The notes beneath the pieces were generated by a model, which was not told the origin of the DNA, searched no databases, and saw nothing but the letters and a program-made list of their open reading frames with translations. From a virus, in IMG/VR virus record IMGVR_UViG_3300014350_000112, positions 721 through 64,720 of that record: a DNA stretch of 64,000 bases; one strand, 5' to 3'. Shown here piece by piece: positions 2,991 to 56,100 of this stretch (its first letter is position 1; every line of letters starts with the position of its first letter). Made by a program: the position numbers and the translations under genes.

Positions 2991-3045
2991 AGTGGGCCTC
3001 GCTGATAGGATTATATTCAGGGATAGGGCAAGCCTCCCCATTATG

Positions 3046-3074
3046 ACACTAGCATCGATTCGAATCCACGTCAA
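3046..3074 (-). promoter_or_regulatory. Candidate host sigma70-type promoter for the left gene block
   Basis: Minus strand TTGACG-N17-TAGTGT with GCTA at the start of the -10, as in alphaproteobacterial housekeeping promoters. Confidence 0.45.
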
Positions 3075-3228
3075 CCCCGGCTAAACCCCTAAAATCTAGG
3101 ATAACATGCCTATCCGTTAACCATTTGGGCGGGAGAATTCGAATGCAAAAAAATCGGGATTGATAGGAATATTTACCAAAAAAGTATTTGAATTTATTTT
3201 TAGATATAAATCTACTAGACTTCCAAAA

Positions 3229-3837: not shown

Positions 3838-3845
3838 TTTATATT

Positions 3846-4256
3846 TTAAAGAGGAATAAGAGTAAAATCTTCACTACCATCAGGCTTTTTCTTTTTCTTA
3901 GTAAGTAACTGATAGCTAGTGGGCATATTTTGCTTACCTTGTTGTTGAATTTTTACTATAGCGGTAACAGATTCAATATCTTCACCGTTTTTAGCTTCTC
4001 TTAAAGCTCTAGCAAAAATAGGTAAAAGATTATTAATTGCTTCTTCGTTATCTGAAACAAAAGAAAATACAGTTGCACCAACAAAAGTTATAGGTTCAGC
4101 ATTTATAACAGGAGTATTATGATCTATTGTAGGAGTAGGAGAAGGTTCAATAGCAGGAGATTCCGATGCAGATTTCTCTGCAAGAGTTTCATCTTTTTTA
4201 AGAATTTCGTGTGGTATAACAGCCGCTTCAATTTCTTGTTTTTTTACTTCTTCCAT
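3846..4256 (-). CDS. Hypothetical protein, 136 aa
   Basis: AAGGAA RBS; CGGTAAA motif 38 nt upstream. Confidence 0.75.
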   Translation of the reverse strand: MEEVKKQEIEAAVIPHEILKKDETLAEKSASESPAIEPSPTPTIDHNTPVINAEPITFVGATVFSFVSDNEEAINNLLPIFARALREAKNGEDIESVTAIVKIQQQGKQNMPTSYQLLTKKKKKPDGSEDFTLIPL

Positions 4257-9249: not shown

Positions 9250-10140
9250 TAAAATCCTACGACTAATTATAGATAGGCTTTACCGTATATGAGTAAATAT
9301 TGTTTATATCAAACACGGTAAAGGAATGTTACAACTTTTATTTATGGTGATAATCGCCTAGCACCGACTACGGACGCAAGCCGTCTATGAAACCATATTC
9401 GGTGATCGCTGCACTGGATTGTTTACACCTCTTGGCCGGTCTAACCGGAGCCGAATTGCTATGTGTAAACAAAATTCCTTCGTGTGCAGACTATTATTAC
9501 GTCTTGTGTCACGCGCGCGGGCCAAGGGGGTAGGGGGTTGCGGTAAAGATCCTAATATTAGATACAGGCGCAAAGTGGAGCCGAAATGAAAATCGAGAAA
9601 AAAGAGCCAAAACCGCAAAACCGGCGCGAAGCGCCTAATTTGCGTAATTGGCCTCATTTTCATAAAAGTTTTCAGGAAGGGCCGGAGGCCCTAAACCTAT
9701 ACGCGCGTAGCGCGAGGACTTTAGACGCGCGCCAGCGCGTCTTTAAAACTATAAACTATTTACCTAAAAATAACAATTCCCTATTAATACAGGAACAACC
9801 CCTTCGGGGTTGTTCCTCTACTAAGAGAATAGCTATTAGCGAAGCAGCCTACGGCTGCTTTTGTCTTCTTTCTTTTTCCTATTTAACTTTAATTAGAATA
9901 TTACGCGCGCGCAAATTAGGATTAGGAAATTATGAATTAGGATTTTCAAATTTGAATTTTTGAATTTTTGAATTTTGTTAAAACTTTTAAACAACTCGGG
10001 GAGTTAATTAAACAACAAGGTATTTTGATAAAACTTCAATAAAAAATCTTATTTCTGCCAGTTACTAATTATAAACAAGGGCGTTGCCTTTAAAAAGGCT
10101 TATAACGCCCTATTGTCACGTCTTCTTTAGTAAATAAAGG
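9250..10140. other. Divergence zone with multiple hairpins; candidate origin or structured RNA locus
   Basis: About 0.9 kb between divergent gene blocks; hairpins at 9678-9692, 9723-9742, 9791-9817, 9842-9860, 10078-10111; CGCGCG runs; AT-rich GAATTTTT repeats near 9950-9975. Confidence 0.5.
9586..9963 (+). CDS. Doubtful ORF, 125 aa
   Basis: GGAG RBS and CGGTAAA about 39 nt upstream favour it; overlap with strong hairpins and atypical composition argue against. Confidence 0.25.
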   Translation: MKIEKKEPKPQNRREAPNLRNWPHFHKSFQEGPEALNLYARSARTLDARQRVFKTINYLPKNNNSLLIQEQPLRGCSSTKRIAISEAAYGCFCLLSFSYLTLIRILRARKLGLGNYELGFSNLNF

Positions 10141-32486: not shown

Positions 32487-35360
32487 ATGCGAATTGGCAA
32501 TCCGTTCCGTGGTATTCAAACGCAAGGCCCTAAAAATTACGGGCGCGCAGAAAATGAATTGCCTTTTGTTCAAGATGCTCTGGATGCTACTGTAAACCGT
32601 GCTAATCGTCAATATATAGAAGCTTTTAAAGTAGATGGCGTGCGTTACCTTCATTGGGGACGTGCTATGGAAGGTTATGTTTGCACTTGTAAAGCCGTAA
32701 AGCCGGAACAAGCGGACGGCACTGGTGTAAATTCAAGTGGACTTTCTAATAGCGATGATCCTTCATATTCTCCTTCTATATCCGACCCTTGGGATGCACT
32801 TACTGTTAGGGGTGTAAAAAGTTCTAGACATTCTAGGGACGATGGAATTTATGTAAACGAAGATGATTCATATTCTTCAGGAAAAGTTCGTGACGCAGAA
32901 GTTGATGAAGCGGCTTATACTATTGATTTTAATGATGAAGATTTTGGTCCCGTAGATTTAAGCGATAATACTTATACACAAAATATTCTTGATCTTTTAG
33001 GTAAGCCGTTATCTAGCGGCGAGATTCAATGTGGTATTTGTTTAGATACGGGATATGTAAACGGTTATCGTCTTACAGGCGGAGATAGAATTATATTTGA
33101 TGCGTCTGGTCAAGTTCCTGTTTATTCAGTGACCGGTTTTTCTATTGATAAACTTAAATCGCCAAATGTGTTTACTTTATCAAGCGCCATGTCAGGCGCT
33201 TACGTGCAATGGCTATGGGAAGTTCCCACACACTTTAAAAAAGCTTTATCTGTTTCCGTTAGAAATAATCAAAACCCTGCTAAGAACGTTCGTTTAGAAT
33301 ATAAACCATTTCAAGAAACACAAGATTTATGGAAAGAACTTACAGTTGAAGTTCTTAATTCGTTTAAAGGTTTACCTACGAAACTTATTTTACGCGTATA
33401 TGCTACGGCAAATGATTTGAGTGCTACTGTTGCATTTACTCATGTTGAGATAACACTCCAGTATAAAGACTGGAATAAGATGCAGATGCCGCCATTATCT
33501 GAAAACGGTAATCTTGCTATATTTGAAACTCCTACAAGTATGTCGGTTGTTCTCCCGCCTTCTCATCAAAATATTAAGCCTTTAGATTATATTTTAGATT
33601 TGAAATATGATAGATTATGGAGAGTATTAGACGTTACTGATGCTAAAACATCTAAACAACAAATTTTAGGCTGGCAAGTAAATTTAAGACTTATTTTGAA
33701 TCACGAAACGGCTCATGTTTTACGTGTAGCGTATGATCCTGAATTTGGATTGTCTTTTGCTACTATGCAGCCGCATCAAGAAAAGACGTTTACTAAAAAC
33801 GATGTAATGACATATGTTGACAAACTAGTAGGTATTCAGGAAAAAGCGCGCTTGCTAATACGTTCTTTGGTTTTGAATCCGCAAACTGGAGAATTTAGTA
33901 TAGGAACTTCAAAAGTAAAACGTAATAACATTTTCGATAACGTAAACGAAGATGGTCTAACTTATTTAGAAGCTGCTGTTTATCATTTTAAACGAAATTA
34001 TCCAAACTTAACTTGGGTATGGTTAGAGCCTTCTTGGTTTGGAACAGATTTACGTGCAGGATCATGTCAAATTCTTCCAAAGGTTAAAAATACTGTAGAT
34101 ACAACTGCACCTTATTCTTGGGTAGTAAATAATTTATCTCGTTCTGATGTTTCTGCCATATCCTCTTTTAATTCTAAGCCAGCATATGATGGAACATTTA
34201 GTGATAAATCTTTTGTAGAAGCTATAAATTATTTAAAAGCAAATGGTTATAAGGTTGGAATAAAACCTAAAATATTAATGGACATAACAGATGCACAAGC
34301 ATTACCTGCTATAGGCGGAGGGGTTCAACCGAGATACCCTAATGCTAATAACATAAATTACGACGGGGATGTAAATAAGGTTGTTAACGTAAATACGTTT
34401 TTTGGAACTCATGTAATTCCTGATTTTACGGCGGATGAATTAGAGTTGACGACTATTTCTAATAAAGTTGGATTTACTTATTCCCGTTTCATTATTCATT
34501 ATATTTTGTTATCGAATATTGCTGGTGGTGTAGATGCTTTTATTATAGGATCGGATCTTCGTAATTTAACAATCAATGTTCCTGAAGCAATAACACATTT
34601 ATTAACGTTAGCTCAAGCCGCGAAAGAAACCTTAAATTGTTTAGTATCTTATGAAGCATCTTCTTTTGAATATGGTGGACAAATTTCTGGTCAGGCATTA
34701 TCGTTTCCGTTAGATGCTTTATGGTCAAACGTGAATATTGATTTTGTAGCTATTAAGTTTGATTTAGAATGGACCGATTGGGCAACTGAAGGTTCTACCG
34801 ACCAACTTGCTTATACCTCATTATACGACCCAACTTATTTAAATGCCACCTTGAAAGGCGGCATACATTATGATTATTATTATTCTAGTGAACCTAACAG
34901 AACAAATGGTATACGCACACCCATTTCTGGAGATTGGCGTAAACGTAAAAAAGCCTTTTCTTCTTGGGTTTCAAATTCTCATATCACAATCGATGGTTCA
35001 GGAATTGATAGTGCAGCTACTTCTTGGGCGGCAATGTCTAAACCTATAGTATTTACAACTTTTTCAATACCAGCAATAGATAGAGGAACAAACGGTCCGT
35101 ATTCTTCTTCCATGTTACGTGCTGTTGATACCAAACCCTATTTCACTGATTCTAGTATAGATAATATGATTACAAAAGTTGGAGTATATACATTTCTTTT
35201 ATATTGGCTTGATAAAACTAATAATTTAATGAATACTTATAATGTGCCTGCTGTTAGATTTTCTATGAATTGTGCTGGTTATTTTAATATTCTTAATGGA
35301 AGTAAATTACCTACAGAATTTACTATTACAAATCGTGAATTGATTAATAATCAAATATAA
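32487..35360 (+). CDS. Virion protein: neck/head-closure-like N-terminus fused to a GTA baseplate (GTA_TIM) domain
   Basis: N-term CTC...CGICLDTGYVNGY; C-term WFGTDLRAGSC.I.PKV, PAYDGT.SD.S.VEAI..LK..G, GVDAFIIGSD, PLDALWS..NIDF, RTPI, SKPI.FT, AIDRGTN. Confidence 0.8.
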   Translation: MRIGNPFRGIQTQGPKNYGRAENELPFVQDALDATVNRANRQYIEAFKVDGVRYLHWGRAMEGYVCTCKAVKPEQADGTGVNSSGLSNSDDPSYSPSISDPWDALTVRGVKSSRHSRDDGIYVNEDDSYSSGKVRDAEVDEAAYTIDFNDEDFGPVDLSDNTYTQNILDLLGKPLSSGEIQCGICLDTGYVNGYRLTGGDRIIFDASGQVPVYSVTGFSIDKLKSPNVFTLSSAMSGAYVQWLWEVPTHFKKALSVSVRNNQNPAKNVRLEYKPFQETQDLWKELTVEVLNSFKGLPTKLILRVYATANDLSATVAFTHVEITLQYKDWNKMQMPPLSENGNLAIFETPTSMSVVLPPSHQNIKPLDYILDLKYDRLWRVLDVTDAKTSKQQILGWQVNLRLILNHETAHVLRVAYDPEFGLSFATMQPHQEKTFTKNDVMTYVDKLVGIQEKARLLIRSLVLNPQTGEFSIGTSKVKRNNIFDNVNEDGLTYLEAAVYHFKRNYPNLTWVWLEPSWFGTDLRAGSCQILPKVKNTVDTTAPYSWVVNNLSRSDVSAISSFNSKPAYDGTFSDKSFVEAINYLKANGYKVGIKPKILMDITDAQALPAIGGGVQPRYPNANNINYDGDVNKVVNVNTFFGTHVIPDFTADELELTTISNKVGFTYSRFIIHYILLSNIAGGVDAFIIGSDLRNLTINVPEAITHLLTLAQAAKETLNCLVSYEASSFEYGGQISGQALSFPLDALWSNVNIDFVAIKFDLEWTDWATEGSTDQLAYTSLYDPTYLNATLKGGIHYDYYYSSEPNRTNGIRTPISGDWRKRKKAFSSWVSNSHITIDGSGIDSAATSWAAMSKPIVFTTFSIPAIDRGTNGPYSSSMLRAVDTKPYFTDSSIDNMITKVGVYTFLLYWLDKTNNLMNTYNVPAVRFSMNCAGYFNILNGSKLPTEFTITNRELINNQI

Positions 35361-37500: not shown

Positions 37501-38661
37501 ATGAAACTAGTAGAAGCTGTATTAGGACAAGAACTTGAAACGGAAATCTTTTTCCGTAGCGATTCGGGCTCGGGATTAGTAGTTGCTGCGCCACCGAAAT
37601 ACGAAATACGAGATTTTAATGATGCGCTAGTTTTATCTGGATTTGGTTCACAGGATGCTTTTAATTTAGCACGATGGACCACAAGATTTACTATACCTAC
37701 AAATTCTCCTATAGGTAAAGCTGGTCAAAAATATAAAATAGTTTGGTCAGTTAAAGAGTCTGCTTCTGGTGATCGCTATACTCAAACAGATTTCTTTGAC
37801 GTAAAATCTAATATAGATTTTAGTTCTCAATATACAGATATTGATGAACGTCTGGTTATAGAACAGACTTTTTTTGAAGACACATTAATTATTCCTGCCA
37901 ATATAGAGATAGATTCTTTATCTGTTTCTGTTTCAGACATTTTAGGAACTCTTATTTACGACTCTGGTTCTCTTCCGACTGCTCCTTCTGTATCAGATGC
38001 TTCAGTGCAAGTATTTAATCATAAAAGCGCAGCAACAATACCAACATTAGTAGTTGCGGGCCTTAATTGTATGCCTTATCAAATAAAGTGGGTATATAAT
38101 GACGGTGTTAGAGATTCTTACGTGATTCATTATTTATATGCTATTAATGCACGTATACTTGATATGCTGCATCAAATTCGTGCTCGCATAGATAAAGCCC
38201 GTAATCAATCCTATAATCCTGCACTAACATATTTAGATACCGATCTTTTAAAATATTTAGATCAGGGTCTTTCTATGTTTAATGCCAAAAAGCCTGTGCT
38301 TACAAATTTTACTATGAAAAACCTTCCTGATATATTCAGATACCCTGTGCTTGAATGTTCTTGTTATAATGCTTTGCGCGCGCAATTAGGTGCAGAAGGC
38401 CAAGCTACTTTTAATTTCGGAGGACAGTCTGTATCTTTAGATATGGATAGAACGCAATTTATAGAATCAGAATTAGGCCGTATTCAAAATTATATAGATA
38501 CAGACGTTCCTAGTGTTAAAAGACAATGGAATAGGCAAGGTGGAATTCGTGGTGCGGCTGGTGTATTGGGTGTAAATGTTGGAGCATCTTTTAATTGGAG
38601 CCCACCTCTTTATAATAGAGGAGGTTTACTTATTGGTTCTTATTCCTCAAGGAATAGATAA
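37501..38661 (+). CDS. Putative head-tail adaptor/neck protein
   Basis: Ig-like N-terminus; C-term DTDLLKYLDQGLSMFN...Y.ALRAQ...FNFGGQSVSLD resembles head-completion proteins (inference). Confidence 0.5.
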   Translation: MKLVEAVLGQELETEIFFRSDSGSGLVVAAPPKYEIRDFNDALVLSGFGSQDAFNLARWTTRFTIPTNSPIGKAGQKYKIVWSVKESASGDRYTQTDFFDVKSNIDFSSQYTDIDERLVIEQTFFEDTLIIPANIEIDSLSVSVSDILGTLIYDSGSLPTAPSVSDASVQVFNHKSAATIPTLVVAGLNCMPYQIKWVYNDGVRDSYVIHYLYAINARILDMLHQIRARIDKARNQSYNPALTYLDTDLLKYLDQGLSMFNAKKPVLTNFTMKNLPDIFRYPVLECSCYNALRAQLGAEGQATFNFGGQSVSLDMDRTQFIESELGRIQNYIDTDVPSVKRQWNRQGGIRGAAGVLGVNVGASFNWSPPLYNRGGLLIGSYSSRNR

Positions 38662-42881: not shown

Positions 42882-43381
42882 TGAATAAACTTCGTGTATA
42901 TCAAACTACTGCTGCTAAACATAAAGTTGGTAGTAGTAACCGTATTTCTTATAATGTTCCTAATGATGTAGGAGAGCATGTTCTTATTTTGAAGGAAATT
43001 AAGAAAAATCTTCCCGGCTCTAAAATTTTTGGTGATTTAAAATTTGTTCCTCAAGATAAGAAAAAGAATAATGACCCATATTCTGAAGCTTTTTCGGCTT
43101 ATGTAAAATATAAAGGCTGTCTTATTATAATAGAGGATGGTAAGTATAAGTGTTACACATCCAATTATAAATCTAAAATGAATAAGTTCGTAGATGACAT
43201 TCTTTCATTTACAGATATTAATCTTTATATGCCTTTCCCCATTAAAATTCCTCTAGATAAAATTGAGGCTATATTCAATAAGTTCAAAAAAGAAGTTGAC
43301 AGCAATAATACCTTCTTTAAACAAATTAATAAGGCAGTTTATGATGCCATTGTAACTGTTCGCAATAGAAAGAAAAAGTAA
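42881..43381 (+). CDS. Hypothetical protein, 166 aa
   Basis: TAATG coupling with the HNH gene. Confidence 0.7.
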   Translation: MNKLRVYQTTAAKHKVGSSNRISYNVPNDVGEHVLILKEIKKNLPGSKIFGDLKFVPQDKKKNNDPYSEAFSAYVKYKGCLIIIEDGKYKCYTSNYKSKMNKFVDDILSFTDINLYMPFPIKIPLDKIEAIFNKFKKEVDSNNTFFKQINKAVYDAIVTVRNRKKK

Positions 43382-43382
43382 G

Positions 43383-43952
43383 ATGAAAAACCTCCTTTTA
43401 TCTTTGTATAATTACAGAGTAGAACCTACAAGAACATTTAAAAAAGATGCGAAGGAGGATCTTCAAAATTTAACAAAAAGAATGTTAGCTAATTATAATC
43501 GTTATTTACTGGACAAGTTAAAAACGATTACTAATGATATTCTAAATATTAAAAAAGAATTTTCTAAAGACCCTAACAAAAATATGTTAGTTAAAAATGC
43601 TTCTAATGAATTGGAACGTATTAAAATCTATCTTAAGCGTATTGCTAAACAATTACGAAAAAATAAGCCTTCTGAAGTTCGTAAGAGATTAAAAATACGC
43701 AAACACGCTATAAAATCTTCTGATTTTGATACTTCTAGTTACCCAATTCCTGCAAAAAAGAGGTTTGAAGCATTAAACAAAATTGTAACTGAAAAACAGA
43801 TGGGTAAAGTTGACGGTAAAACTATAGATATGCTAACAGCCCATACAGTTATTAGTATATTGAAACGAGTATCCATTGATAATCAAAGAAAGCTTTTATC
43901 TTTGCCTATTAATAAGATGATAGATGTTGTTTATAAAGTATCAAGTAAGTAA
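43383..43952 (+). CDS. Hypothetical protein with KVDG..IDM.TA..V C-terminal motif
   Basis: Motif recalled from small myophage proteins. Confidence 0.65.
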   Translation: MKNLLLSLYNYRVEPTRTFKKDAKEDLQNLTKRMLANYNRYLLDKLKTITNDILNIKKEFSKDPNKNMLVKNASNELERIKIYLKRIAKQLRKNKPSEVRKRLKIRKHAIKSSDFDTSSYPIPAKKRFEALNKIVTEKQMGKVDGKTIDMLTAHTVISILKRVSIDNQRKLLSLPINKMIDVVYKVSSK

Positions 43953-43970
43953 TCTGGAAAGGATCGTGCT

Positions 43971-44186
43971 ATGGACGGATTTATTCCTTTTGTTGCAGTA
44001 GGCGTTCTAGTTATTTTTGTAGTAGTAGGCTTTATTCTTCGTAACAGAAAAAAGAAGGCCATTATATCTACATCAACACCACCTACATCTAAAGATCCTT
44101 TAGATGGATGGGATGGATCTATGATAAGCGTTCCTCAGTTTCCTAATAAAGTAATTACAAGTATAAATACGGACCCTAAAAAATAA
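43971..44186 (+). CDS. Small single-TM protein, 71 aa
   Basis: N-terminal hydrophobic helix followed by RNRKKK. Confidence 0.65.
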   Translation: MDGFIPFVAVGVLVIFVVVGFILRNRKKKAIISTSTPPTSKDPLDGWDGSMISVPQFPNKVITSINTDPKK

Positions 44187-44283
44187 GTATTTATTAATAA
44201 ATAATTGCAAAGGTTCTATAAAATATCTTGAAGATGGATAAACTATAATAAAAAGCGTTGTGTCTATTATTAAGGTTATATAA

Positions 44284-46590
44284 ATGCCAATTAAGACACC
44301 AAATTTTTTAAAGCCGCGCCTATCTGAATTTAGACGTGCAGCTATTAAAGACAATCGTAACAGAATAATGCGAATTAGTGTGGGGGCAAATGCCCCCGCA
44401 CCCTTTTTTGCCGTAGTTACTAATGAAGTTTTTGTTGGTGTGCATCCAGATAGGGTGCAGACTATTTTTTTTGAAAACAATGTTTCTGAAGCTGTCAATA
44501 AGCTTTTAAATAAAGCCAAGTCGAAAGCGGTAATTAAAACACAACAGTCAAGTCGCGTTGATAACTTTATTCAAGTTATGAAAAAGCTTCGCACTAATAA
44601 TGTGAGGCTTCTAAAATTTAAGACCTCCAACGGTCTTTCGTATTACGTAACACGCGATCCTATGACATTTGTGTTAGCTACACATTATGTTAAAGATAAA
44701 GAACCTGATTGGGAAAAAATAGATTCTTTTTTGAAGAAACAAAATTTTGCCTATCATAGCGGTAGCACTCAATCTAAATTAACAGACCAAGAATTTGATA
44801 ACTGGAAAGAAACATATTTAATATATGGTAAAAAATGGCCCTTCGATAATACAGTAGGAGCTGCACCGCGTTCTAAAGAAAAAATAACCTTGCCCCAACA
44901 AATGGGTTCTCTTGAAAAAGAAAACACTTCTAAAGGTATTTTTGTTTGGGCCAAAAAGAATAAAATTACCGCAAAAATAGCTACTCCTAAATTAGATGGC
45001 ATATCGGCTCTTGTTGTTTATAAAAAAGGCTTACTTACAAATGTTTATACCAGAGGTGATGGTATAAAAGGTAGAGATATTACTAGACATGCTTATCTAG
45101 TCAAAGACATTCCTAAGAGTATAAATATAAAAGAACCTTTGCATGTGCGCGGTGAGTTACTAATAAAAAATTCAACTTTTATACAAAAATTTGAAGGGGC
45201 GTATGCTAATCCCCGTAATATGATGGCGGGAGTTGTTAACAGGTCGAACTCTAGTTTAAGTGAACTGGAAGAAACTTCTTTTTTCGTTTTTGATTCCGAC
45301 TATCAAGCTAAATCAAAAAGTGAAATGCTAAATAGCTTGAAAAAGACAGGATTTAAAACGGTTCCTTATATAACAGTTGATGATTCTATATCATTAGATA
45401 ATATTCTTTCAGAATTTAAAAAACGCTTAGATTTTGATATGGATGGATTGGTAGTAGAAGCGAATAATCCTAAAGAACGAAAGAAAATAGGCTACGAAAC
45501 GAACTCTTTAAATCCAAAATTTGCTAGAGCATACAAACCACCCAAATTAGATAATATAACTCAAGCTACTATAAAAAGCGTTGAATGGAATGTATCTCGT
45601 CATAGGCAGTTAAAACCAGTAGCAATAATAAAACCCGTTAAATTGGCCGGTGTAACAGTTTCTCGCGCAACGCTTTTTAATGCCGCTTTTGTGATTCAAA
45701 ACCGTATAGGGCCGGGAGCTATAGTGGAATTAACACGCAGCGGAGAAGTAATTCCGCATGTTATGCGTGTTATAAAAGGCGTTTCTATTGGAGTTGCTAT
45801 AGCTTCACCAGATAAGAAAAAATTTGGAGACTATCATTTAAATGAAACTTCTGTAGACTACGTTTTAGGGGAAAAAGTTTTTTCTGAAGACGTTGAGATT
45901 AAAAATACTTTACATTTTCTTGAAAAATGCGGAGTAGAGCGTATTAAGGAAGAAACCGTTCGTGCTTTTTATAATACGGGTTTTAACTCCATAGAAAAAA
46001 TCGTCAAAATGAATTTTGATGATCTTATGAAAGTAGAAAGAATGGGAGAAAAGTCTGCTAATAACATAATAGAAGAATTTAAAAAACTGCAAGCGGTTCC
46101 AATGGATCGTTTAATGTATGCTTCTAATATGTTTGGGAGAAATTTTGGAACTAGACGATTTAAGTCTATATTGGAAAGATTTGGACGTAATACCTTAAGA
46201 TGGAATGGTCAAACTATTAGAGAAATAGCAGAACAAATAGCAACCATATCAGGTTTCTCCTACGAAGGGGGAAAGCAGTTTGCTAAGGGCATTAAACCGT
46301 TTCTTAGATTTAAGAAAAGCTTAGAGCCGTATGTGAACGGAGTCTATCCAACTAAAACAAAAAATAAATCAAATAAGCTGTCTGGAGCATCTGTAGTATT
46401 TACAGGAATAAGAGATACACTTTTAGAGGATATTATTGTTAATAATGGTGGTTCTATAGGAGGTTCAGTTTCTAAAAATACTTCCCACGTTATATGGACT
46501 GGAAATAAGACTTTAAAATCCGATAAAGCTAAATCTATGGGTATTCCATTATTAACTATCGAACAATTCAAAAAGAAGTATAGTCTGTAA
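44284..46590 (+). CDS. ligA: NAD-dependent DNA ligase with N-terminal extension
   Basis: TPKLDG adenylation motif, TRGDG..G.DIT, VRGE, NPRN..AG, DGLVVE, OB fold VSRATLFN, HhH, C-terminal BRCT (VVFTG). Confidence 0.95.
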   Translation: MPIKTPNFLKPRLSEFRRAAIKDNRNRIMRISVGANAPAPFFAVVTNEVFVGVHPDRVQTIFFENNVSEAVNKLLNKAKSKAVIKTQQSSRVDNFIQVMKKLRTNNVRLLKFKTSNGLSYYVTRDPMTFVLATHYVKDKEPDWEKIDSFLKKQNFAYHSGSTQSKLTDQEFDNWKETYLIYGKKWPFDNTVGAAPRSKEKITLPQQMGSLEKENTSKGIFVWAKKNKITAKIATPKLDGISALVVYKKGLLTNVYTRGDGIKGRDITRHAYLVKDIPKSINIKEPLHVRGELLIKNSTFIQKFEGAYANPRNMMAGVVNRSNSSLSELEETSFFVFDSDYQAKSKSEMLNSLKKTGFKTVPYITVDDSISLDNILSEFKKRLDFDMDGLVVEANNPKERKKIGYETNSLNPKFARAYKPPKLDNITQATIKSVEWNVSRHRQLKPVAIIKPVKLAGVTVSRATLFNAAFVIQNRIGPGAIVELTRSGEVIPHVMRVIKGVSIGVAIASPDKKKFGDYHLNETSVDYVLGEKVFSEDVEIKNTLHFLEKCGVERIKEETVRAFYNTGFNSIEKIVKMNFDDLMKVERMGEKSANNIIEEFKKLQAVPMDRLMYASNMFGRNFGTRRFKSILERFGRNTLRWNGQTIREIAEQIATISGFSYEGGKQFAKGIKPFLRFKKSLEPYVNGVYPTKTKNKSNKLSGASVVFTGIRDTLLEDIIVNNGGSIGGSVSKNTSHVIWTGNKTLKSDKAKSMGIPLLTIEQFKKKYSL

Positions 46591-46635
46591 TCTTTATCTA
46601 ATTTTAAGTGATACTTTTTATAAGAGTGCCGCACC

Positions 46636-48564
46636 ATGAACGACTTTCATACTATTTTAGCAGCTAAACTTGCTAAAGGTTCTAAAACTAGTAAGAAACT
46701 AGTCTCCAAACCTAAAAAGAAAAAAGTCGGTAGTGGAGGTAGCATTAAGAAGACCAAATCTCCGACTACAAAAACTACGAAAACTATAGTAAAAAAAGAT
46801 ATTAATAAACGTAATGCTAATATTAAAACTAGAATGAAAAATGGCGGCGGGAAGAAACCAGCTAATCCAAATAAAGTTGAAAAAGTTTTAGAACGTCATA
46901 AGGCCCTTCAGAGTAAATCTCCTAATAAAAATATACCCATTAAAGCAGCTTTAGTAAAACAAACAAGAACAGAAACTAAAAAAGCTGTTAAGTCTATTAA
47001 CTCTAAAGCGCGTAAAGCTAATTCAAAAACTAGAACGAAAGCGGCTTCTAAGACCGCTAAAATGCGGCCTTCTCAATTGGCAAAAAAACTTGGTATGCCA
47101 GTTAAAGAAGCAGAGAAGCAAGCCCAAACTCTTTTAAATTCTGCTAAGAACCCAGTTAACTTTAATTATAAACTAAATTCTTTTCTAGGTAAATTGGGAG
47201 CGTTTACTATTAACGCTTTATTAGTTGGTGGTGCTGTAGCTGGCGTAACCGCATTAGCTGTAGCTTTACCAACTTCAATCCAGTTAGTGTTAGGTGCAGG
47301 CCTAATGCAAATGATTGCTGGTGGTTTAGGAATTTCAAAAGCCTCAGATGAAGATGAAGGTAATTCTTATAATTTTCCTGCTTTGAATAATTTAATTCCT
47401 GTTTTAGCTGATTATATAAAAAGCGGTAACTTAGAAGAAATTTTTGGAATGATAGAATCAATGTCGGACGATCCAGAACATGACGATGCTAGTAACAAAA
47501 AGAAATTTTTAACATATTCTCATAAAAATATTTTAAATAGATTAGAAACTCTTTCTGGAGTGACACCTAATTCCCGAATTAAGCGTTTAGCTCCTATAGA
47601 ATATCCAGAAGCAAGTATATATTCTTCTGGTATTTATGTTTGTTGGTCTTTAAAAAGAAGCTGCGCCGTAAAATTGGAACAGTGGGCTAGGGACAATTCA
47701 ATTCCTAATGTGAAGCCCGCTAACTACATGCATTGCACTATTATTATGTCTAAAACATCACCCATGATTTTAGACGCAAAAAAGAATTATTTTGAAGGCG
47801 CTGGTTTATTTAAAAAACCTTTATCTCCACAGAGATTAATCAGGCTTAGAAAATTAGGGCCTTCTGCTATCGTTATTGAAATGGAATTTTATGAAGCGCA
47901 TAATCGTTTTGAAATGTTAAAAGATTTGGGATGCACTTCCGACTTTCCTTCTTATGTAGCTCACGTAACTGTTGGTGAGGATAAAGAAGTCTTGATTAAT
48001 AATAAGAATCTTAAGGCAATAAGCCTTCCTACTTTTCCATTAGAATTTGATTATGAATATTGCGGTCCATTATTAGATGATAAAAAACAACGTCATGCTG
48101 TTAATGCGTCTACCGACGTATTAGATGCCCTTGTTTACAAATCAAAAAAAGCAGCCTTAACCGATAAAGTTTTACGAAAGAAAAATACTATGCTAGTTAA
48201 TAAAACATTTGCTTCTGTATTGGCTTCTTCTATGGAAGAACTTGCCGGTCGTAAAAAGAAGGCAGTTGATCCTTCTCCTCCTAAACATCGTAAAAATGCA
48301 ATTAAAGAATATCGGGCTATAATTGAATTTTTTAAAGAATTTGATTTGACTAAAAAGATAACCGAAATTGAAGAAATGGTAGATGCTGCAGAAAAAGTTT
48401 CTGATAAAAACGAAATGAAAGATCTTGCTAAAAAATTACGTGCTATGGTTGATACTGATTCTGGTATTATTAATAACGACTTTTTCTCTAAATGTTTAAA
48501 GCTTGACGATGGCCCTAAAGAAATTGCCCGTTCTTTGTCTCGTTTAGCTAAATATAAAGAATAA
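46636..48564 (+). CDS. Multidomain protein: Lys-rich N-terminus, TM hairpin, Acb1/T4 gp57B-like 2H phosphodiesterase, helical C-terminus
   Basis: GIYV...IPN......MHCTI...LGCTSDFPSYVAHVTV...FDYEYCGPL matches the Acb1 pattern GLYV...VPN.....IHSTI...LGATHDFDDYTPHITL...LDREYKEPL. Confidence 0.82.
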   Translation: MNDFHTILAAKLAKGSKTSKKLVSKPKKKKVGSGGSIKKTKSPTTKTTKTIVKKDINKRNANIKTRMKNGGGKKPANPNKVEKVLERHKALQSKSPNKNIPIKAALVKQTRTETKKAVKSINSKARKANSKTRTKAASKTAKMRPSQLAKKLGMPVKEAEKQAQTLLNSAKNPVNFNYKLNSFLGKLGAFTINALLVGGAVAGVTALAVALPTSIQLVLGAGLMQMIAGGLGISKASDEDEGNSYNFPALNNLIPVLADYIKSGNLEEIFGMIESMSDDPEHDDASNKKKFLTYSHKNILNRLETLSGVTPNSRIKRLAPIEYPEASIYSSGIYVCWSLKRSCAVKLEQWARDNSIPNVKPANYMHCTIIMSKTSPMILDAKKNYFEGAGLFKKPLSPQRLIRLRKLGPSAIVIEMEFYEAHNRFEMLKDLGCTSDFPSYVAHVTVGEDKEVLINNKNLKAISLPTFPLEFDYEYCGPLLDDKKQRHAVNASTDVLDALVYKSKKAALTDKVLRKKNTMLVNKTFASVLASSMEELAGRKKKAVDPSPPKHRKNAIKEYRAIIEFFKEFDLTKKITEIEEMVDAAEKVSDKNEMKDLAKKLRAMVDTDSGIINNDFFSKCLKLDDGPKEIARSLSRLAKYKE

Positions 48565-48568
48565 TTCT

Positions 48569-49201
48569 ATGGCTAAGAAAATTTCTACTGTTAAGGATAA
48601 AAGAAAAAAGTCGGTAATAAAACCTTCTTCTAAAAAACAGGCTGTGAAAAAATCTACTAGTAAACAGAATGACAAAACACCTTTAAAGAAGCCTTTTGTT
48701 AAAGACCCTTTTTATGTTACACCTATAACCCAAAAGGATCTTCCCGAAAATAGAGTTGTATGGAACAAGCAGTCATTCATTAATAATGAAGTTGATGTTC
48801 CTCGTAAAGATGCAGTTTCTCTAAAACCTGTTATGGTTCCTAAGAGTTCTTTGCCGCCGGATAAGTCTTTTAAGGCAGCAGGCTTTGCCCTTAAAACAAA
48901 AATAGCTTTTGAAAACGTATTACATTCTGTTCAAACATTACGAGAACAACGAGTAGCTTTATTATTAGACGACGTAACTAGAGAAGTAAATTCCTTAGAA
49001 GATTCATTAAAAGCAAAAGATAATCGTATAGATAATAATGAAATTTTAAAACGAACTAAGAAACTTCATAATATGGTTCGAAATGTAGGAGATTTTGTAA
49101 TAATAGAACATTACATACGAGATATAAGAAAAACAATAGAAAGCTTATGTAATCATATTTACTCTTCATTAAAAGAAGTCGGCAAATCTAATTTTAAGTA
49201 G
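48569..49201 (+). CDS. Hypothetical protein, Lys-rich N-terminus and coiled-coil C-terminus
   Basis: ORF in late block. Confidence 0.7.
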   Translation: MAKKISTVKDKRKKSVIKPSSKKQAVKKSTSKQNDKTPLKKPFVKDPFYVTPITQKDLPENRVVWNKQSFINNEVDVPRKDAVSLKPVMVPKSSLPPDKSFKAAGFALKTKIAFENVLHSVQTLREQRVALLLDDVTREVNSLEDSLKAKDNRIDNNEILKRTKKLHNMVRNVGDFVIIEHYIRDIRKTIESLCNHIYSSLKEVGKSNFK

Positions 49202-49284
49202 GACAGAGTTAGTTACGAAAAGTTTTGTATTAATTTGGGGCGGCAAATTATACATTAAAATTTTTCGTTGCGAGGAAGGTTTAA

Positions 49285-49647
49285 ATGGAAACTACCATAG
49301 CAGGAAGTCAACAGATACTTTCTAAAGTAATGGAATACAGCATATCTCTTTTTTTGCTGTTATTTATGGTTATAGGACTTTCAATTGCCTTATACTTTTC
49401 AATTAAACGCATAGGTAAATTACAGGACGCTCTTTTATCTAAAGATAAAGAACATTCAGATAATCTTCAAATAATATTTGATAAAAATAAAGAAGATTTA
49501 GAAAAAATGCAGGTATCTACAGTAATCAAAATATCTGAAATGAGTAATAGTGTATTGAATACTCTTACTCGCGTTTCTACCGTAATGGATATAATCTTTA
49601 GACCTAATGTGCAGTTAGGTCAAGGACAATCGTTTAATAATCCTTAA
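49285..49647 (+). CDS. Single-TM membrane protein (holin/antiholin-like?)
   Basis: YSISLFLLLFMVIGLSIALYFSI TM then coiled coil; GAGGAAGG RBS. Confidence 0.6.
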   Translation: METTIAGSQQILSKVMEYSISLFLLLFMVIGLSIALYFSIKRIGKLQDALLSKDKEHSDNLQIIFDKNKEDLEKMQVSTVIKISEMSNSVLNTLTRVSTVMDIIFRPNVQLGQGQSFNNP

Positions 49648-49680
49648 TAAGTTGTAACGATAAAAATTTGGAAATTAAAA

Positions 49681-50055
49681 ATGTCTCAACACAAATTTTT
49701 ATCTTATAACATAACCCCCGGCGTTGTAGCCATGTCTCATAAACTTTCTTCTTCTCCAAATAAAAGTATATCAAATGTTCTTGAACGACTAGAACAAAGT
49801 TATACTGATAAAAGAAAAAGACAAATAGAAGAAAGTGAAAATAAAAAAGAAATTGTAGATGAAAAAGGAAAAATAGATATTTCTGTAGTTTCTAGCGTTT
49901 TAGACGGCTCTACAGAAGCTTTTACAAAAGTATTGGATTGTGTTGTAAATAACGTAAAAGAAGTAGCTCATAATATAGGTAGATCTTTATCTATTTCCAT
50001 GGAAGATAGTGGGTTACATAAAAATAATCATAATAATTTAAGTAAACAAGATTAA
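49681..50055 (+). CDS. Hypothetical protein, 124 aa
   Basis: ORF in operon. Confidence 0.65.
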   Translation: MSQHKFLSYNITPGVVAMSHKLSSSPNKSISNVLERLEQSYTDKRKRQIEESENKKEIVDEKGKIDISVVSSVLDGSTEAFTKVLDCVVNNVKEVAHNIGRSLSISMEDSGLHKNNHNNLSKQD

Positions 50056-50069
50056 ATAAGAGTTTAACA

Positions 50070-50546
50070 ATGTCCTTTTTTCTAGTTACTACTAGTTTTG
50101 TAGAAAATTTTCAAGATTTTTTTAATAAATTAGTTGTTAGTTTACAAATATCTTGGTTAATGCACGCTTTTATTTTAATTATGTTGTTTTCACCCGGAGT
50201 AATTTTATTCTTATATAAGATCTTTCATTTAAGAGAACCGGTCGAGCCTAAAACAACTAATCCAATGATTTTTCAAATAGGTTATTTAACAAGCCTTTTA
50301 GGTTTATTGATGTTTGGATTAACCGCCATTAATAAACTTATAACAGGAAATCTTCATTATGAGTGGATGCAAAACGATAGTTTGGCTCATTTAATTATTC
50401 TAGGCGTAATTTTAATAAGTGTTGGGCATACAATTCAAGTATTTGCTTTTGAAAAGCAAAGACATGTTAAGAAAGGTTTTTCACCTTTCTATCTTAGTTT
50501 GATAATTTGGATAACTTGCACCATCGGAATTTTTATTGTTGTTTAA
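50070..50546 (+). CDS. Multi-TM membrane protein (about 4 TM)
   Basis: Four hydrophobic segments. Confidence 0.7.
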   Translation: MSFFLVTTSFVENFQDFFNKLVVSLQISWLMHAFILIMLFSPGVILFLYKIFHLREPVEPKTTNPMIFQIGYLTSLLGLLMFGLTAINKLITGNLHYEWMQNDSLAHLIILGVILISVGHTIQVFAFEKQRHVKKGFSPFYLSLIIWITCTIGIFIVV

Positions 50547-50557
50547 AGGTTAAAATT

Positions 50558-52585
50558 ATGCTTAGTAGCTTTACATCTTACAAACTTAATCTTAATAAAA
50601 AACCCATAACAGCGATTGCTTCTTTAAAAAAGAATCCTGTTAGAAGAGTTACTTTTGTTTTTGCTAACGAACAAGAAATTCAAAGTGAAGCAAAAAAACA
50701 AAAGGAAAAGTCTTCTGTAAATGCAGTTAGATTTTACGACCTTGAAACGGAAAGGGCCTTTGCATTTGTAAACGATGAATTAATCGTTGTAGCAGATGAT
50801 AAGGCTCGGCGTGCAACAGATGCTTTTATTAAAGTATTAGCAGTCATTGCACTTAAACGGCGTAGAACCCTAATTAAGGCACTGATGCCTTTTTATGATA
50901 AATATTTATTAGAAGCGAAAGATTTTATTAAAAAGCATAAAGTTAAAGCCGACGTTTTCAATAACATGGCATCTAAGACTAGTGTCCTTAGAGGCGATGC
51001 TAAGGAAACTGAAGATGGGACAAAACTTTCCGAAAGAGTTGGAGAATTCTTAAAAAGTTTTCGTTCTTTATACCGTAATTCAATCAAAGCAGATATGGAT
51101 TCCATATCTCGTAGTCAGTATCACATCATAAACGCTTTATTGACCTTATTGTCCTCTCCTAATTCTGAAAATGCTTATAAAGCAGTATCTAAATATATTA
51201 CTTATTTAAAAGATTCTAACCTTACTCCGTTTTTCACATTTACAGATGAAGACACCGGAGGATCAGGCAAAGATCTTATGAGTGAACGTCGCACTATGCT
51301 TAAGAAACTCGGAGGCGATGTTGAAAAAGGTTTATCGGCTGAAACTAGGGAAATAGCTAAGAAGAAAAATCCTGAGTTACTTAAGGCATACAATAAACTG
51401 AATTCAAATTTAGCAAATCGTTTTAAGCATGATGTTCGTAAGATTGTTATGGACACCAAGGAACCTTGGGTGTTTTTAGAAAGAATTATACCGTCTCTTA
51501 AAAAGATGGGATGGCCGCAGGGTTATTTGGAACGTATGTATTCTAAAACTTTATTAGATACCAAAAAATATATCGGTATAAATACTTCTTCTGAACTAAC
51601 AGATAAATTCGGCAATTCTATTGGAGTTCATGCGGTTCCTCCCGGTGTTGAAACTTTAAAAATTAATCCGAATTATGGTGAGGAAGGCGCTAGGGCAGCT
51701 TTCGTTTATCAAACTCAATCTAAAAAACAAGTTGCTGAAGGTAAAGGCGAGTCTGCCAAAACTTATACTAAAAATCGAACGGCTCACGTTAAAACAGAAA
51801 ATAAATGGCAGCCCGTGCAATCTTTAATTAAAGATATATCTTCTGTAAAACTTAAATGGCGTAAAGCTGCGCAGTTAAAAGATACTAAACATGGTATGTT
51901 TAGTTTAATCGTTGAAGCTTTATTTTGGACAGCCGGTCGTGTAGGTGCTCGTGTAGGAACTTCTGAAGGTAAAACTACCTTTGGTATTTCTTCTTTGTTA
52001 AATAAGCACGTTATATCGACAACGCCACAGAAAGCAAAAATAGTTTATTTAGCTAAAGCAGGACAAAAGCAGACTCATGTTTTAGATATAACACAAGTAA
52101 AAAATGCTTCTGACGCAGATAAAAAAGCATTGAAGAATTTACTTGCATACATAGCAGAACGTAAAGCTAATTCTACAAAAGATTCTTTGTTGTTCCCTAT
52201 TCCAAATGCCGGACGTGTTAATACCCATGAACTTATGTTATGGATGCGTAAAATAACCGGCATTTCTAAATTTAAAAATCATATGATTCGTTATCTTAGA
52301 GGGACCGAAATTGCCGTTAAGGAACTAGAAGAAGCAAAGAAAAAAGCTCTTGCTTTAAAGAAGAAAAACAAATTAAATCAAAAAGAAGCTGATAAATTAT
52401 TTAAAGAGGCTATTACTCCTGTAGCAAATTCTCTTGGTCATTTTCTTAATGAAAAACCAAATATTAATACTTCCATTAAGTCTTACATTCAACCTGAGTT
52501 AATGACTAGCTGGTATAAAGAAGTAGGTATGCGCGCACCTAAAAACGTAGAAGACGCGTTTGATTCAATGACGAAAGTTGGTTAA
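50558..52585 (+). CDS. Type IB DNA topoisomerase with long N-terminal region
   Basis: Catalytic pentad R (GRVG), K (LAKAG), R (MIRY), H (LGH), Y (KSYIQP); TFGISSLLNKHV resembles bacterial TopIB SYGLTTL..RHV. Confidence 0.82.
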   Translation: MLSSFTSYKLNLNKKPITAIASLKKNPVRRVTFVFANEQEIQSEAKKQKEKSSVNAVRFYDLETERAFAFVNDELIVVADDKARRATDAFIKVLAVIALKRRRTLIKALMPFYDKYLLEAKDFIKKHKVKADVFNNMASKTSVLRGDAKETEDGTKLSERVGEFLKSFRSLYRNSIKADMDSISRSQYHIINALLTLLSSPNSENAYKAVSKYITYLKDSNLTPFFTFTDEDTGGSGKDLMSERRTMLKKLGGDVEKGLSAETREIAKKKNPELLKAYNKLNSNLANRFKHDVRKIVMDTKEPWVFLERIIPSLKKMGWPQGYLERMYSKTLLDTKKYIGINTSSELTDKFGNSIGVHAVPPGVETLKINPNYGEEGARAAFVYQTQSKKQVAEGKGESAKTYTKNRTAHVKTENKWQPVQSLIKDISSVKLKWRKAAQLKDTKHGMFSLIVEALFWTAGRVGARVGTSEGKTTFGISSLLNKHVISTTPQKAKIVYLAKAGQKQTHVLDITQVKNASDADKKALKNLLAYIAERKANSTKDSLLFPIPNAGRVNTHELMLWMRKITGISKFKNHMIRYLRGTEIAVKELEEAKKKALALKKKNKLNQKEADKLFKEAITPVANSLGHFLNEKPNINTSIKSYIQPELMTSWYKEVGMRAPKNVEDAFDSMTKVG

Positions 52586-52587
52586 CC

Positions 52588-53166
52588 ATGAAAATAAGCA
52601 ATTTTTATCCGGGAATGAACCCTTTACTAGCTAAAACCTTAATAAAAGAACTATCTTATAAAGATGAAAATTTTGTTAAAGCAGACGACAACGACGACAT
52701 AGAAAATGAAGATGATTATGAAAAACTTTATTTTGAATTGAAAGAAAAGTTAGAATCTTTAGAAAAAGAAAATGCGTTGTTAAAAATGCAACAACTAGAA
52801 CTATCTGAGAATAATGATATTTTATCAACTAGATTAGAACGAATTGAAAAGCAGTTTGACAAAAATTTAGATACTATAATATCTTCAATTTATCGTATAA
52901 AGACTTTTAAAGAAGCTGTAGATGCTACTTTACAATTTAATAGAGACTGGTTTATATCTGTGCAATTATCCGAAGACGGAAAAATAAAATTTGCTCAGAC
53001 TTTATTAGAAATAGTAAAACCCATTCTAAAAGAAGAAAATTTAGAACTAATTTCAAATATAGCCAATAGAGATTCTAAAACTTTACAAGATATTTGGGCT
53101 GGTAAAACGGATGAAGAAAGCGGTATTACACCAAAACTTAGTTCTTATGAACAAAATGATTTATAA
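52588..53166 (+). CDS. Coiled-coil hypothetical protein, 192 aa
   Basis: ORF in late block. Confidence 0.7.
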   Translation: MKISNFYPGMNPLLAKTLIKELSYKDENFVKADDNDDIENEDDYEKLYFELKEKLESLEKENALLKMQQLELSENNDILSTRLERIEKQFDKNLDTIISSIYRIKTFKEAVDATLQFNRDWFISVQLSEDGKIKFAQTLLEIVKPILKEENLELISNIANRDSKTLQDIWAGKTDEESGITPKLSSYEQNDL

Positions 53167-53180
53167 CGGTAAACACTGTA

Positions 53181-56100
53181 ATGAGTATTAATCAAGCGGC
53201 ATCTGGTATTCTTATGGGTAATTTTGAAAGAAGCAATGTTATGCTAGAACAGAATTTATTTAAAAAAGCCCGTATCAATCATAGCGCATTAGAAATGCAC
53301 AGTTCTAAAGTAGCTGGAGTCGTGGCTCGTATGTTATTAAATGGCACTCCTTTTAAGAAAGCACGTAAATATATCAGAAAAAATATAGAGGAAGCAGCTA
53401 AGAAACAAATTATTCTTCCTAAAAAAGTTTCAGATAAATTAAAGTCTCGTATAAAAACCATTAAGAAAAAGATATTTAATCCTCGTAAACCGGACGCTGT
53501 TTCTTTAGAAAATAAACGTATAAAAAAATCCGGTAAAAAGGCGGAAAACTTTACATTTAAGATGCCGCCGGAATCAAAAATCGTTGAAAAATATTCTAAG
53601 TTATTTGGAACTCTTGCTAAATCCAATCACGATTTTATATATAGGCCTATTATTCATACTTTTCATATGCTCCGGCATATTTTTTCGGCGGCGGAATTTC
53701 ATTTAAGCTATGGTTCTCAACCCGATCAAGGGGTTGCTTCTGTATATAGAAATTGGCGAGATACAAACCTCTTAGCTGCAATTGAAGAACCTAATTCTTA
53801 TTTAAAAGATGCCGGAGAATACTTAGAAACTAATATACAAAAATTACCTAATCACAATTTTGTTCTGTCTATTGCTAACCAGCAATCCGAACCGGAATTA
53901 ATGGAAGCAACTAGAAAAGCGGCTAGAATTATTCAGACATTTTTTAAAGATTACAAATTACCAAATAGTTATAAAACAATTAATTTAGATGACCATGATC
54001 CTTTAACAAAGGAATTAATGGGCGTAGGCGGTTACACTGGAAAAGCTATTGTTTTTGATCAAAATACATTAAGGGTGCGCTACTCTTTTAAAGAGTTAAA
54101 AACATTACGCCCTGTTTATTCCCACTTTGATGAAAAAGCTTGGGCTGCCGGTCCTAATAATATCGGTATGCCTCCTGAAGCAGCAATGGGTCGCAAGGTT
54201 CCTTCTGGTGTAGAATCTATATTAGACTCTATGTTAGATTTTGAGCTTATACTAACTCCAACTCCAATGAGTAATAAGTCTGTTAATAATTGGGCTATTA
54301 GAGATAAAAAGACAGAAGGGGATTTTTCAGATAGTTCTTCTCCTAAAATGCTTTTATCTTATTCTCTACAAGTAATTCCTTACATCAAATGGCCGCGTGA
54401 AGTTGCCTATTATTTTACTTCTTCTGAAAAAGAGGAAGATTTTATTCCGGCGTTTTTCTTCCGTTATGTTGCTTTGCATAAACAATACTCTGGTAGAGTT
54501 AATCAGCATACTGGAGGCTTTAAGCCTCCTAGTAAAATTCAACCTCTTAACAAAATCAAAAAACTTATAGAACAAGAAGCAAAAATACGTAAGATTACTC
54601 CTCGTTCTAATAAAGAAGGTTTTGTTATCGTAGGGCCTTCTGAAAAAAGTTTATCCGGCACTGTAATCCATGTTCCTGAAAGTAGGGCGGATAATGTTGA
54701 GGCTTACACAAATCTCTATAGAAATGCGTTTGATAAAGAACAAAATCAGATTCTTTTTGATAAAAATGATTTAATGTCTAATAAGCCCGTCTTAATTGAT
54801 TGGGCTAATAGTATGTTTACTTACGCTAACTCTGTTGCTGATAGAGATTATCTTAAACATGGTGTAACAACTATTAATTTAACTGGTTCTATTCCTTTAA
54901 ACGATGTAACTATAGGCAGAGATTTAGATAGAACTTTATATGATGATAATTCTATAACAGTAGCTTTTAGAGACAGGCTTACCAATTTTACAAATGAATT
55001 TGGCATTAGAGATACTAAGAAAGAACTTACTTCTAGTGATGTTCCTCGTTTGGTATATGAATCTGGATTTAAATCTTTTCCAACTTTAATTGAGGCTGAT
55101 GGTGTAAGAGAAAAATTTGATATTGACAATGATGAGCACAGAGAACTATTAGCGGCAGATGCTTATGATTCTTTAGATGATAACATTAAAAGCACGCTTG
55201 AAAATTTACGAATATATACTGTAGTAGAGGCTTTCAATCGTTTAATTCATAATATAAGTTTAGACATTAAATGGATACATATAGGTAATCCAGATCATCC
55301 TGATTTAAAAGATAGCCCCGTGTTACGTGCAAGCTGCGCTTTTATTAAAGCGCAGTGTGAAAGAGCTTTATCTAAAATTGATGATTGGGGTATAGCCTAT
55401 AAAGATAAAATAGAGTTTTTACGTTATCGCCTTTGGCTTATTTGTCGTTATTCTAAACGTAGCGAACATTTTATTAAGGTATATCAAAAAGAAATAGAAG
55501 TAAATCAGGGCAAAGACATTAAAAAGGATGCTCCTGTTCCTGTATACAATCTTCCAAATCTTAAGGTATTATTACCGCATACCGTAGAAGCGGTTAACTG
55601 TTTAAATGCACCTGAAAATAAAAATTCTTTTGTTAGTATTCAGGCTGGCGGTGCAAAAACTATTACTTCTATTTTAGATATTACTAATGCTATAGCAACT
55701 AAAAAAGTAAAACGTGCAGTAGTGGTTCCTCCTAATGGTTTGGTAGGGACTTGGGTAGATGAAATTAATAGTAAATCAGAAGGTTCTATTAATGCTATAC
55801 CGTTAACTACTGCTATTTTACGAGATATTGAACGCACCGTTTCTAATCGTCATCAGGGAGCTAATATAGATACACCAGATTATAAAAATTTGGGACGTTA
55901 TCTATTATCTGCTCCCCCAAATACCATTTTTATAGCTAGTATGTCTTTTCTAAAAAGTCATACTGAAACTGTGGTATATGGCGATAAAACTACTAGCCGT
56001 TACTATATGGCTGAATTTATTAGAGACTTATTTAATGCCCCGGAAGATTTATTATGCTGTGTTGACGAATCGCACTTTGTTAAACGTATAGGTTCTGCTA

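Follow-up and report, generated by a model that had tools for sequence, protein, structure and literature searches.

An Acb1 domain inside a large jumbo-phage protein

The viral DNA analysed here (the window, 64,000 nucleotides) makes up most of a 66.6-kb IMG/VR record (IMGVR_UViG_3300014350_000112). The completeness of this record is estimated by CheckV at 26%, which points to a jumbo phage with a genome of roughly 250 kb. The family A polymerase encoded in the window has ~30% identity with its counterparts in PaBG, Yoloswag and other myoviruses of 250–310 kb, and a megablast search of the 40–60 kb segment of the window against phages gave no match. The present work deals with the open reading frame (ORF) P0001 (46636..48564, plus strand), coding for a multidomain protein of 642 amino acids whose residues 331–485 (47626..48090) form a 2H phosphodiesterase domain of the Acb1 family. 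The extent of the ORF had been proposed in a preliminary description based on the DNA letters alone; it is borne out by the ORF translation and supported by full-length homologues and conserved synteny (see below). Acb1 is the prototype of the enzymes that counteract CBASS, an antiphage signalling system that is based on cyclic oligonucleotides, by degrading its signal and, to our knowledge, has so far been investigated solely in its small, soluble form.

The domain is recognized by sequence profiles and by structure. Residues 332–485 match the Pfam family PF23474 (Acb1) with 61.8 bits (E 7.5e-17; curated cut-off of 27 bits) over profile positions 2–143 of 144, and the same stretch matches PHROG 755 (E 2.5e-17). 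No other 2H family was found in the protein by the Pfam scan at E ≤ 0.01, and this includes the LigT and CPDase family models. A sequence match was also found to Acb1 of Erwinia phage FBB1 (PDB 7t26; E 5e-6) in which both HxT motifs align. Alignment with T4 gene 57B places the first catalytic motif at H366-C367-T368 (47731..47739), equivalent to H44-S-T46 of T4 Acb1, and the second at H443-V444-T445 (47962..47970), equivalent to H113-I-T115. These are exactly the positions of the HCT (47731) and HVT (47962) motifs reported previously. The flanking signatures listed along with them were all found as well: GIYV (Y334), IPN (residues 356–358), LG..DF..Y..H.T (431–445) and EY..PL (474–479). The catalytic tetrad is near-invariant among 63 aligned sequences.

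An AlphaFold2 (AF2) model built from those 63 sequences gives the Acb1 domain a predicted local distance difference test (pLDDT) score of 94–98. Its best structural matches in the PDB, as ranked by Foldseek, are the Acb1 entries 7t27 and 7t26 (E 2e-8 and 1e-7; TM-score by target 0.72–0.79), followed by PDE-9 of a Burkholderia jumbo phage (E 2e-5; TM-score 0.61–0.63). LigT (TM-score 0.40–0.47), CPDase and Usb1 trail behind, all with TM-scores of 0.47 or less. The presence of an Acb1-like domain embedded in a much larger protein is thus supported concordantly by the Pfam and PDB matches, the T4 alignment, the model and the Foldseek search, and we consider the predicted identity of the enzyme as an Acb1-family 2H phosphodiesterase to be secure.

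The residues that contact the ligand in T4 Acb1 provide a reference for comparison. In the T4 enzyme H44, T46, H113 and T115 are catalytic, Y12, W74, F107 and W147 make stacking contacts with the bases, the adenine N6 is recognized by E141, and a flexible C-terminal lid is formed by residues 145–152 (Hobbs et al. 2022, PMC9117128). The protein described here keeps the tetrad, Y12 (Y334), F107 (F437) and Y110 (Y440), so two of the four base-stacking aromatics (Y12 and F107) are retained. The T4 gp57B and FBB1 Acb1 proteins (PDB 7T26, 7T27) thus have in common with it the Pfam family, the 2H fold and the HxT/HxT tetrad. The T4 protein is a stand-alone enzyme of 152 amino acids, whereas here the domain, about 25% identical to it, lies within 642 residues. 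PDE-9 of phage BCSR5 (PDB 9Q2Y, 9Q2G) is likewise a stand-alone protein (about 160 amino acids). It has 14–16% identity to the domain in the window and falls in one structural group with Acb1, with its lid at the opposite terminus, which shows that lids are interchangeable. The jumbo phage BCSR5 also has a topoisomerase IB related to the one encoded in the window.

Scaffold, family and genomic setting

The 642-residue chain begins with 13 residues (46636..46674; M-x-D-F-x-x-x-L-A-A-K) that are its best-conserved segment (mean pairwise identity of 0.65) and that are followed by 60 poorly conserved ones. The Acb1 domain ranks second (0.48). The idea that this N-terminus is a capsid-targeting tag like those of T4 was examined in the window, where no other ORF starts with an M-x-D-F-x-x-x-L-A-A-like motif. 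Residues 14–175 (46675..47160) form a Lys-rich polybasic region, defined by composition and by the model, which is partly helical (helices within 49–171, modelled with moderate confidence, pLDDT 66–93) and contains an NPNK..ERH...SKTR segment conserved family-wide. The first 175 residues include 50 K/R versus 7 D/E, a net charge of +43, in keeping with the Lys-rich N-terminus noted before.

A Gly/Ala-rich hydrophobic segment follows (residues 183–233; 47182..47334), composed of two halves around the conserved Pro211. It had been described as a glycine-rich hydrophobic stretch, which indeed exists, and the protein was called membrane-anchored on that account. Its Kyte-Doolittle means over 19 residues peak at 1.5–2.1 and so pass the usual threshold for transmembrane helices (1.6). 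On the position-independent Hessa scale the free energy of insertion is +1.7 to +2.0 kcal/mol for one half and about +4 (4.1) for the other, compared with −2.2 to −3.3 kcal/mol for the transmembrane helices of three small neighbouring proteins (ORFs 43971–44186, 49285–49647 and 50070–50546). The hydrophobic character and the central Pro are kept in all homologues with a sequence identity of just 0.25, and the AF2 model is of low confidence over the stretch, showing no confident helices there. A constitutive membrane anchor is doubtful because the two halves are marginal on the Hessa scale and the same pattern is found in all homologues. Conditional or peripheral association with the membrane, or a role unrelated to membranes, is possible.

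Between this segment and the enzyme lies a conserved acidic helical linker (residues 244–276; 47365..47463) defined by the invariant columns P..L.DYI..GN.EE..G, with helices at 248–274. The C-terminal helical bundle (residues 531–642; 48226..48561) was delimited from the model and its invariant motifs, starting with an invariant A-G-R-K-K-K (48244–48261). Its four-helix domain (about residues 545–642) is confidently modelled (pLDDT 83–97), bearing out the helical C-terminus proposed earlier, and features the invariant AGR.KK, N613, F616 and DDGPKEIAR-type motifs. A PDB profile search with the C-terminal domain returned nothing below E 0.05, VIA-align matched it to generic helical bundles with a Z-score of at most 8.0, and no BFVD match had an E-value below 0.6. 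These fold searches are uninformative and do not constitute evidence for a new fold. There were no usable hits in the ESM Atlas for the N- or C-terminal parts and no NCBIfam hits for the 642-residue protein, in which Pfam and PHROGs identify the Acb1 domain only and no portal, MuF or other virion domain.

An exhaustive phmmer search identified seven full-length representatives of the family, 30–48% identical (42–48% for the closer ones), and a 148-residue relative that corresponds to the C-terminal domain alone. The gene is found in at least seven divergent contigs of uncultured jumbo phages, and the architecture is conserved in related phages. Contigs carrying family members range from 32 to 52% GC and come from samples that include at least a bioreactor and a marine source. 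A tblastn search of 50,697 phage records with the whole protein matched the Acb1 domain only, in three records, and yielded no full-length relative, and no relatives turned up when IMG/VR was scanned with the family alignment.

Family members differ in how many 2H modules they carry. A second module follows the first in P0003, P0004 and P0007; P0007 has it intact, whereas in P0003 and P0004 erosion has affected its second His motif. In P0008 and P0009 an extra module is found ahead of the first, and both His are replaced in the extra module of P0009. In a sister clade of 50–52% GC (L010 7566–10447, L011 7566–10447 and L012 10001–12861) the orthologue is split. Its 801–809-residue protein comprises the basic region, the hydrophobic stretch and two 2H modules and ends after the second, and the C-terminal helical domain is encoded by its own gene (148–149 amino acids) located 5 nucleotides downstream. 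The scaffold is thus modular and its C-terminal domain is a separable unit. An apparent lack of the orthologue in a further contig, L009, turned out to be a gene-calling artefact, as its DNA is 96% identical to that of L011 and contains an open frame of 788 codons.

The gene order of the window is also that of L001, L006/L007 and L008: genes of the connector cluster, the NAD-dependent DNA ligase, the Acb1-domain gene, four small genes, topoisomerase IB, a ~190-residue protein and an SNF2 protein of ~1,800 residues. In the window the ligase gene (44284–46590) is the upstream neighbour, and four small ORFs separate the Acb1-domain gene from the genes for topoisomerase IB, SNF2 helicase and PolA. 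The nearest recognizable virion genes lie 8–14 kb upstream (connector, 37501–38661; tail protein, 32487–35360). Placing the gene in a virion gene block, as was done initially, is therefore imprecise, since its flanks are genes of replication and repair. Note that structural and replication genes are interleaved in this phage lineage, as they are in PaBG, so that the position of the gene says little for or against packaging of its product.

The start codon of the Acb1-domain gene is preceded, 39 nucleotides upstream, by a promoter-like motif, TCTAATTTTA (46597..46606, plus strand), identified by aligning orthologous upstream regions, in which TAATTTTA is invariant across all four. The shorter sequence CTAATTTTA, present at 46598 as noted previously, lies 34–43 nucleotides before the orthologous start codons. 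The window, L001 and L006 have it in exact form, L008 as TTAATTTTA. The loci sharing this motif have just 37–48% protein identity. Of the 12 plus-strand copies of CTAATTTTA in the window and three relatives, 10 lie between genes, compared with 4.6% of the sequence being intergenic (P about 3e-12, with the reservation that some copies are orthologues of one another and hence not independent). The other exact copies in the window are at 38662 and 49187; the former site, immediately behind the head-tail connector gene, and the latter, ahead of the second of the small downstream genes (49285), are both conserved. Near-copies precede the tail gene and an H1-like gene. The genes at 38742 and 40220, which share the motif, remained unclassified by tblastn and Atlas searches.

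A different motif, (A)CGGTAAA, is enriched four-fold in the window (11 copies versus 2.8 expected; 9279–9322, 10577, 20506, 24150, 25924, 43813, 53166 and the 59258 region). It is located 26–58 (about 45) nucleotides before several replication genes, namely those for the single-stranded DNA-binding protein, the polymerase, a phosphoesterase and the divergent clamp-loader region, and a copy is found upstream of the SNF2 gene in all relatives. CGGTAAA was not found before the Acb1-domain gene. Sequence CTAATTTTA would thus mark a putative promoter class distinct from that of the replication genes, and its association with the connector cluster hints at late expression. A search of sequencing runs listed none from RNA that hold the sequence.

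Possible functions of the scaffolded enzyme

The 642-residue protein is probably an anti-signalling factor. We propose that it is a scaffold protein specific to this phage clade that carries an active Acb1-family 2H module. Residues 331–485 would most likely hydrolyse host cyclic oligonucleotide signals, of the CBASS or the type III CRISPR kind, by the metal-independent HxT/HxT acid-base mechanism of the T4 and FBB1 Acb1 enzymes. The remaining parts (N-terminal tag, +43 region, hairpin, linker and four-helix domain) most likely position the enzyme rather than catalyse, the preferred location being on nucleic acid, at the cytoplasmic membrane face, or both. Transcription would start from the phage-specific CTAATTTTA class of putative promoters.

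Several observations weigh against this proposal. The residues at three ligand-contacting positions of T4 Acb1 differ (R for W74, G477 for E141 and K for the lid W147), and the domain is internal, the chain continuing for 157 residues more with no free C-terminal lid. Membrane insertion of the hydrophobic segment would be marginal, and the model has low confidence there. Some structural groups of viral 2H proteins were inactive on a panel of 18 compounds (10.1101/2025.08.21.671373). Finally, the gene belongs to the fixed, syntenic core of the clade and lies between ligase and topoisomerase, which is less typical of accessory anti-defence genes and leaves room for a role on nucleic acids. On the other side, the equivalents of W74, E141 and W147 are also variable among stand-alone family members, so these positions bear on specificity more than on family membership. 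Acb1 and PDE-9 both cleave 3′3′-cyclic GMP-AMP (cGAMP), the core and not the lid sets specificity in their structural group, the lid can be at either terminus, and its deletion is tolerated for cGAMP (10.1101/2025.08.21.671373). With a lid whose position is flexible and whose deletion is tolerated (Doherty et al.), the residue losses are not evidence against activity, yet the altered contacts and the missing free lid mean that the substrate range may differ from that of T4 Acb1 and cannot be assumed.

How and where the enzyme is deployed can be read in different ways. It is possible that the protein is a virion-packaged effector of the polyvalent type, made late, bound through its basic tail to the DNA in the head and ejected with the genome. 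Its hairpin would then insert in the inner membrane at the entry site and signals would be destroyed before phage gene expression. Acb1 domains elsewhere are fused to proteins internal to the head: among the weaker hits to the domain are fusions to the portal families PF04860, PF06074 (with MuF) and PF06381, and to MuF alone (P0012, P0034, P0056, P0054). Others occur in giant proteins (P0057, P0040, P0074) with SprT-like domains, of up to 2,105 residues, or with NUDIX plus ADP-ribosyltransferase, and there are also fusions to cytidylyltransferase-like domains. The fusion hits also include P0015 and P0017, making a broad set of architectures around one enzyme core. For 2H fusions to MuF or portal in polyvalent proteins, packaging and injection were predicted by Iyer et al. 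(2017; PMC5512222), who proposed that they degrade the nucleotides of nucleotide-activated defence systems. Further points fitting ejection are the occurrence of CTAATTTTA after the connector gene (38662) with near-copies before the tail and H1-like genes, the marginal hydrophobicity, as would suit a protein that stays soluble until its delivery and inserts thereafter, and the conserved 13-residue N-terminus, which could be a targeting tag ahead of a variable region. Against ejection stand the lack of a portal, MuF or other virion domain in the Pfam and PHROGs searches, the occurrence of the N-terminal tag in no other ORF of the window, and the position of the gene next to ligase and topoisomerase rather than head genes, to which the interleaved gene order allows little weight either way.

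The proteins compiled by Iyer et al. are comparable in that they too hold an Acb1-type 2H module inside a larger phage protein. Unlike the portal and MuF fusions, the 642-residue protein has no recognized delivery domain and is encoded among jumbo-phage replication genes, its partners being the polybasic region, the Gly/Ala hydrophobic hairpin and a novel helical domain. Multidomain architectures accounted for 13 of 75 phage 2H enzymes (Doherty et al., 10.1101/2025.08.21.671373). Blocking of CBASS by a virion or ejection protein has a precedent in the ejectosome protein Gp15 of ICP3/T7-type phages, which inhibits the CapV effector stoichiometrically without degrading cGAMP (10.1101/2025.07.23.666291); it has no relation in sequence or fold to the protein described here.

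A constitutive inner-membrane protein is a slightly less likely proposition. In that case a two-helix hairpin with both ends cytoplasmic would hold the phosphodiesterase beside membrane-bound CBASS effectors, with no packaging involved. A hydrophobic stretch of ~50 residues with a central Pro conserved in all homologues, and the vicinity of three small ORFs that are clear membrane proteins, speak for such a topology. The free energies given above contrast unfavourably with those of these neighbours, the second half of the stretch is especially weak in all homologues, and the AF2 model lacks confident helices there.

The most elaborate version of the ejection scheme, in which a pre-made Acb1 is directed to the prohead by the N-terminal tag, packaged in the capsid with its tail on the genome and inserted through its hairpin at the DNA entry site, is unlikely. 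If it were true, this clade of jumbo phages would possess a delivery scaffold of its own, with no relation to portal or MuF.

Least probable is that the 2H domain targets nucleic acid ends or RNA and works with the neighbouring ligase, topoisomerase and helicase, either processing 2′,3′-cyclic phosphates like LigT/CPDase or Usb1 or acting as an RNase, its polybasic region serving as a nucleic-acid-binding tail and immune signals not being its substrate: the fixed place in the ligase/topoisomerase IB/SNF2/PolA block of all relatives, the missing cGAMP-recognizing E141 and lid Trp, a tail of a type typical of nucleic-acid-binding proteins, and the RNase function considered for phage 2H domains by Iyer et al. 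(PMC5512222) are outweighed by Acb1 being the only Pfam family that scores, by the clearly worse match of the LigT, CPDase and Usb1 structures relative to Acb1 and PDE-9, by the adjacent ligase being an NAD-dependent DNA ligase and not an RNA ligase, and by the variable copy number and partial decay of 2H modules, which resemble arms-race turnover more than housekeeping.

The concept of a delivered Acb1 is not new, since injection of 2H fusions was already predicted in 2017. The suggestion that this is an unusual way of deploying an anti-defence enzyme is weakened accordingly by the existing portal and MuF fusions. What is new is the scaffold itself (polybasic region, Gly/Ala hairpin and novel helical domain), its fixed place in a clade of jumbo phages and the altered ligand-contact residues. 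In this uncultured clade one or two copies of the Acb1 catalytic core are built into a large non-enzymatic scaffold. If the scaffold localizes or delivers the enzyme, selection would act not just on catalysis but also on when and where the signal is destroyed, and the family would offer an experimental handle on the 2017 prediction of injected 2H proteins. The loss of the cGAMP-contacting Glu and of the lid Trp makes it a candidate for a different substrate range. This range matters because defence systems such as Panoptes punish promiscuous phosphodiesterases.

Other features of the window

The first of the small downstream ORFs (48569–49201; 210 amino acids) starts 4 nucleotides past the stop codon of the Acb1-domain gene and may be translationally coupled to it. 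Its product is Lys-rich at the N-terminus and helical in its C-terminal half, and no family was found for it. That it is a copy of the C-terminal domain of the 642-residue protein was ruled out (hhalign probability of 1.7%). The 692-residue protein encoded at 50507–52585 has no Pfam hit of its own, but its orthologues match PF01028 (topoisomerase I). It is 21–25% identical to the topoisomerases IB of PaBG, Lu11 and phiRSL1 and carries a long N-terminal extension.

Other candidate regulatory signals were set aside. A scan of 43000–53500 for sigma-70 promoters and terminators gave 48 promoter-like sites versus 41 in shuffled sequence, with nothing specific upstream of the Acb1-domain gene. The motif TTATCTWA/ATCTWA is enriched about two-fold, mostly inside genes, and was dropped in favour of CTAATTTTA. 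A "promoter" annotation in Lu11 proved to be a record-wide feature and was not used. A terminator-like hairpin (44378–44401; 10-bp stem with 8 GC pairs, followed by a T run) sits within the NAD-ligase ORF, ~95 nucleotides past its annotated start; either it is an attenuator or the ligase frame really starts further downstream. Positions 1–4000 of the window have a GC content of 41–44%, compared with 27–37% elsewhere in the window.

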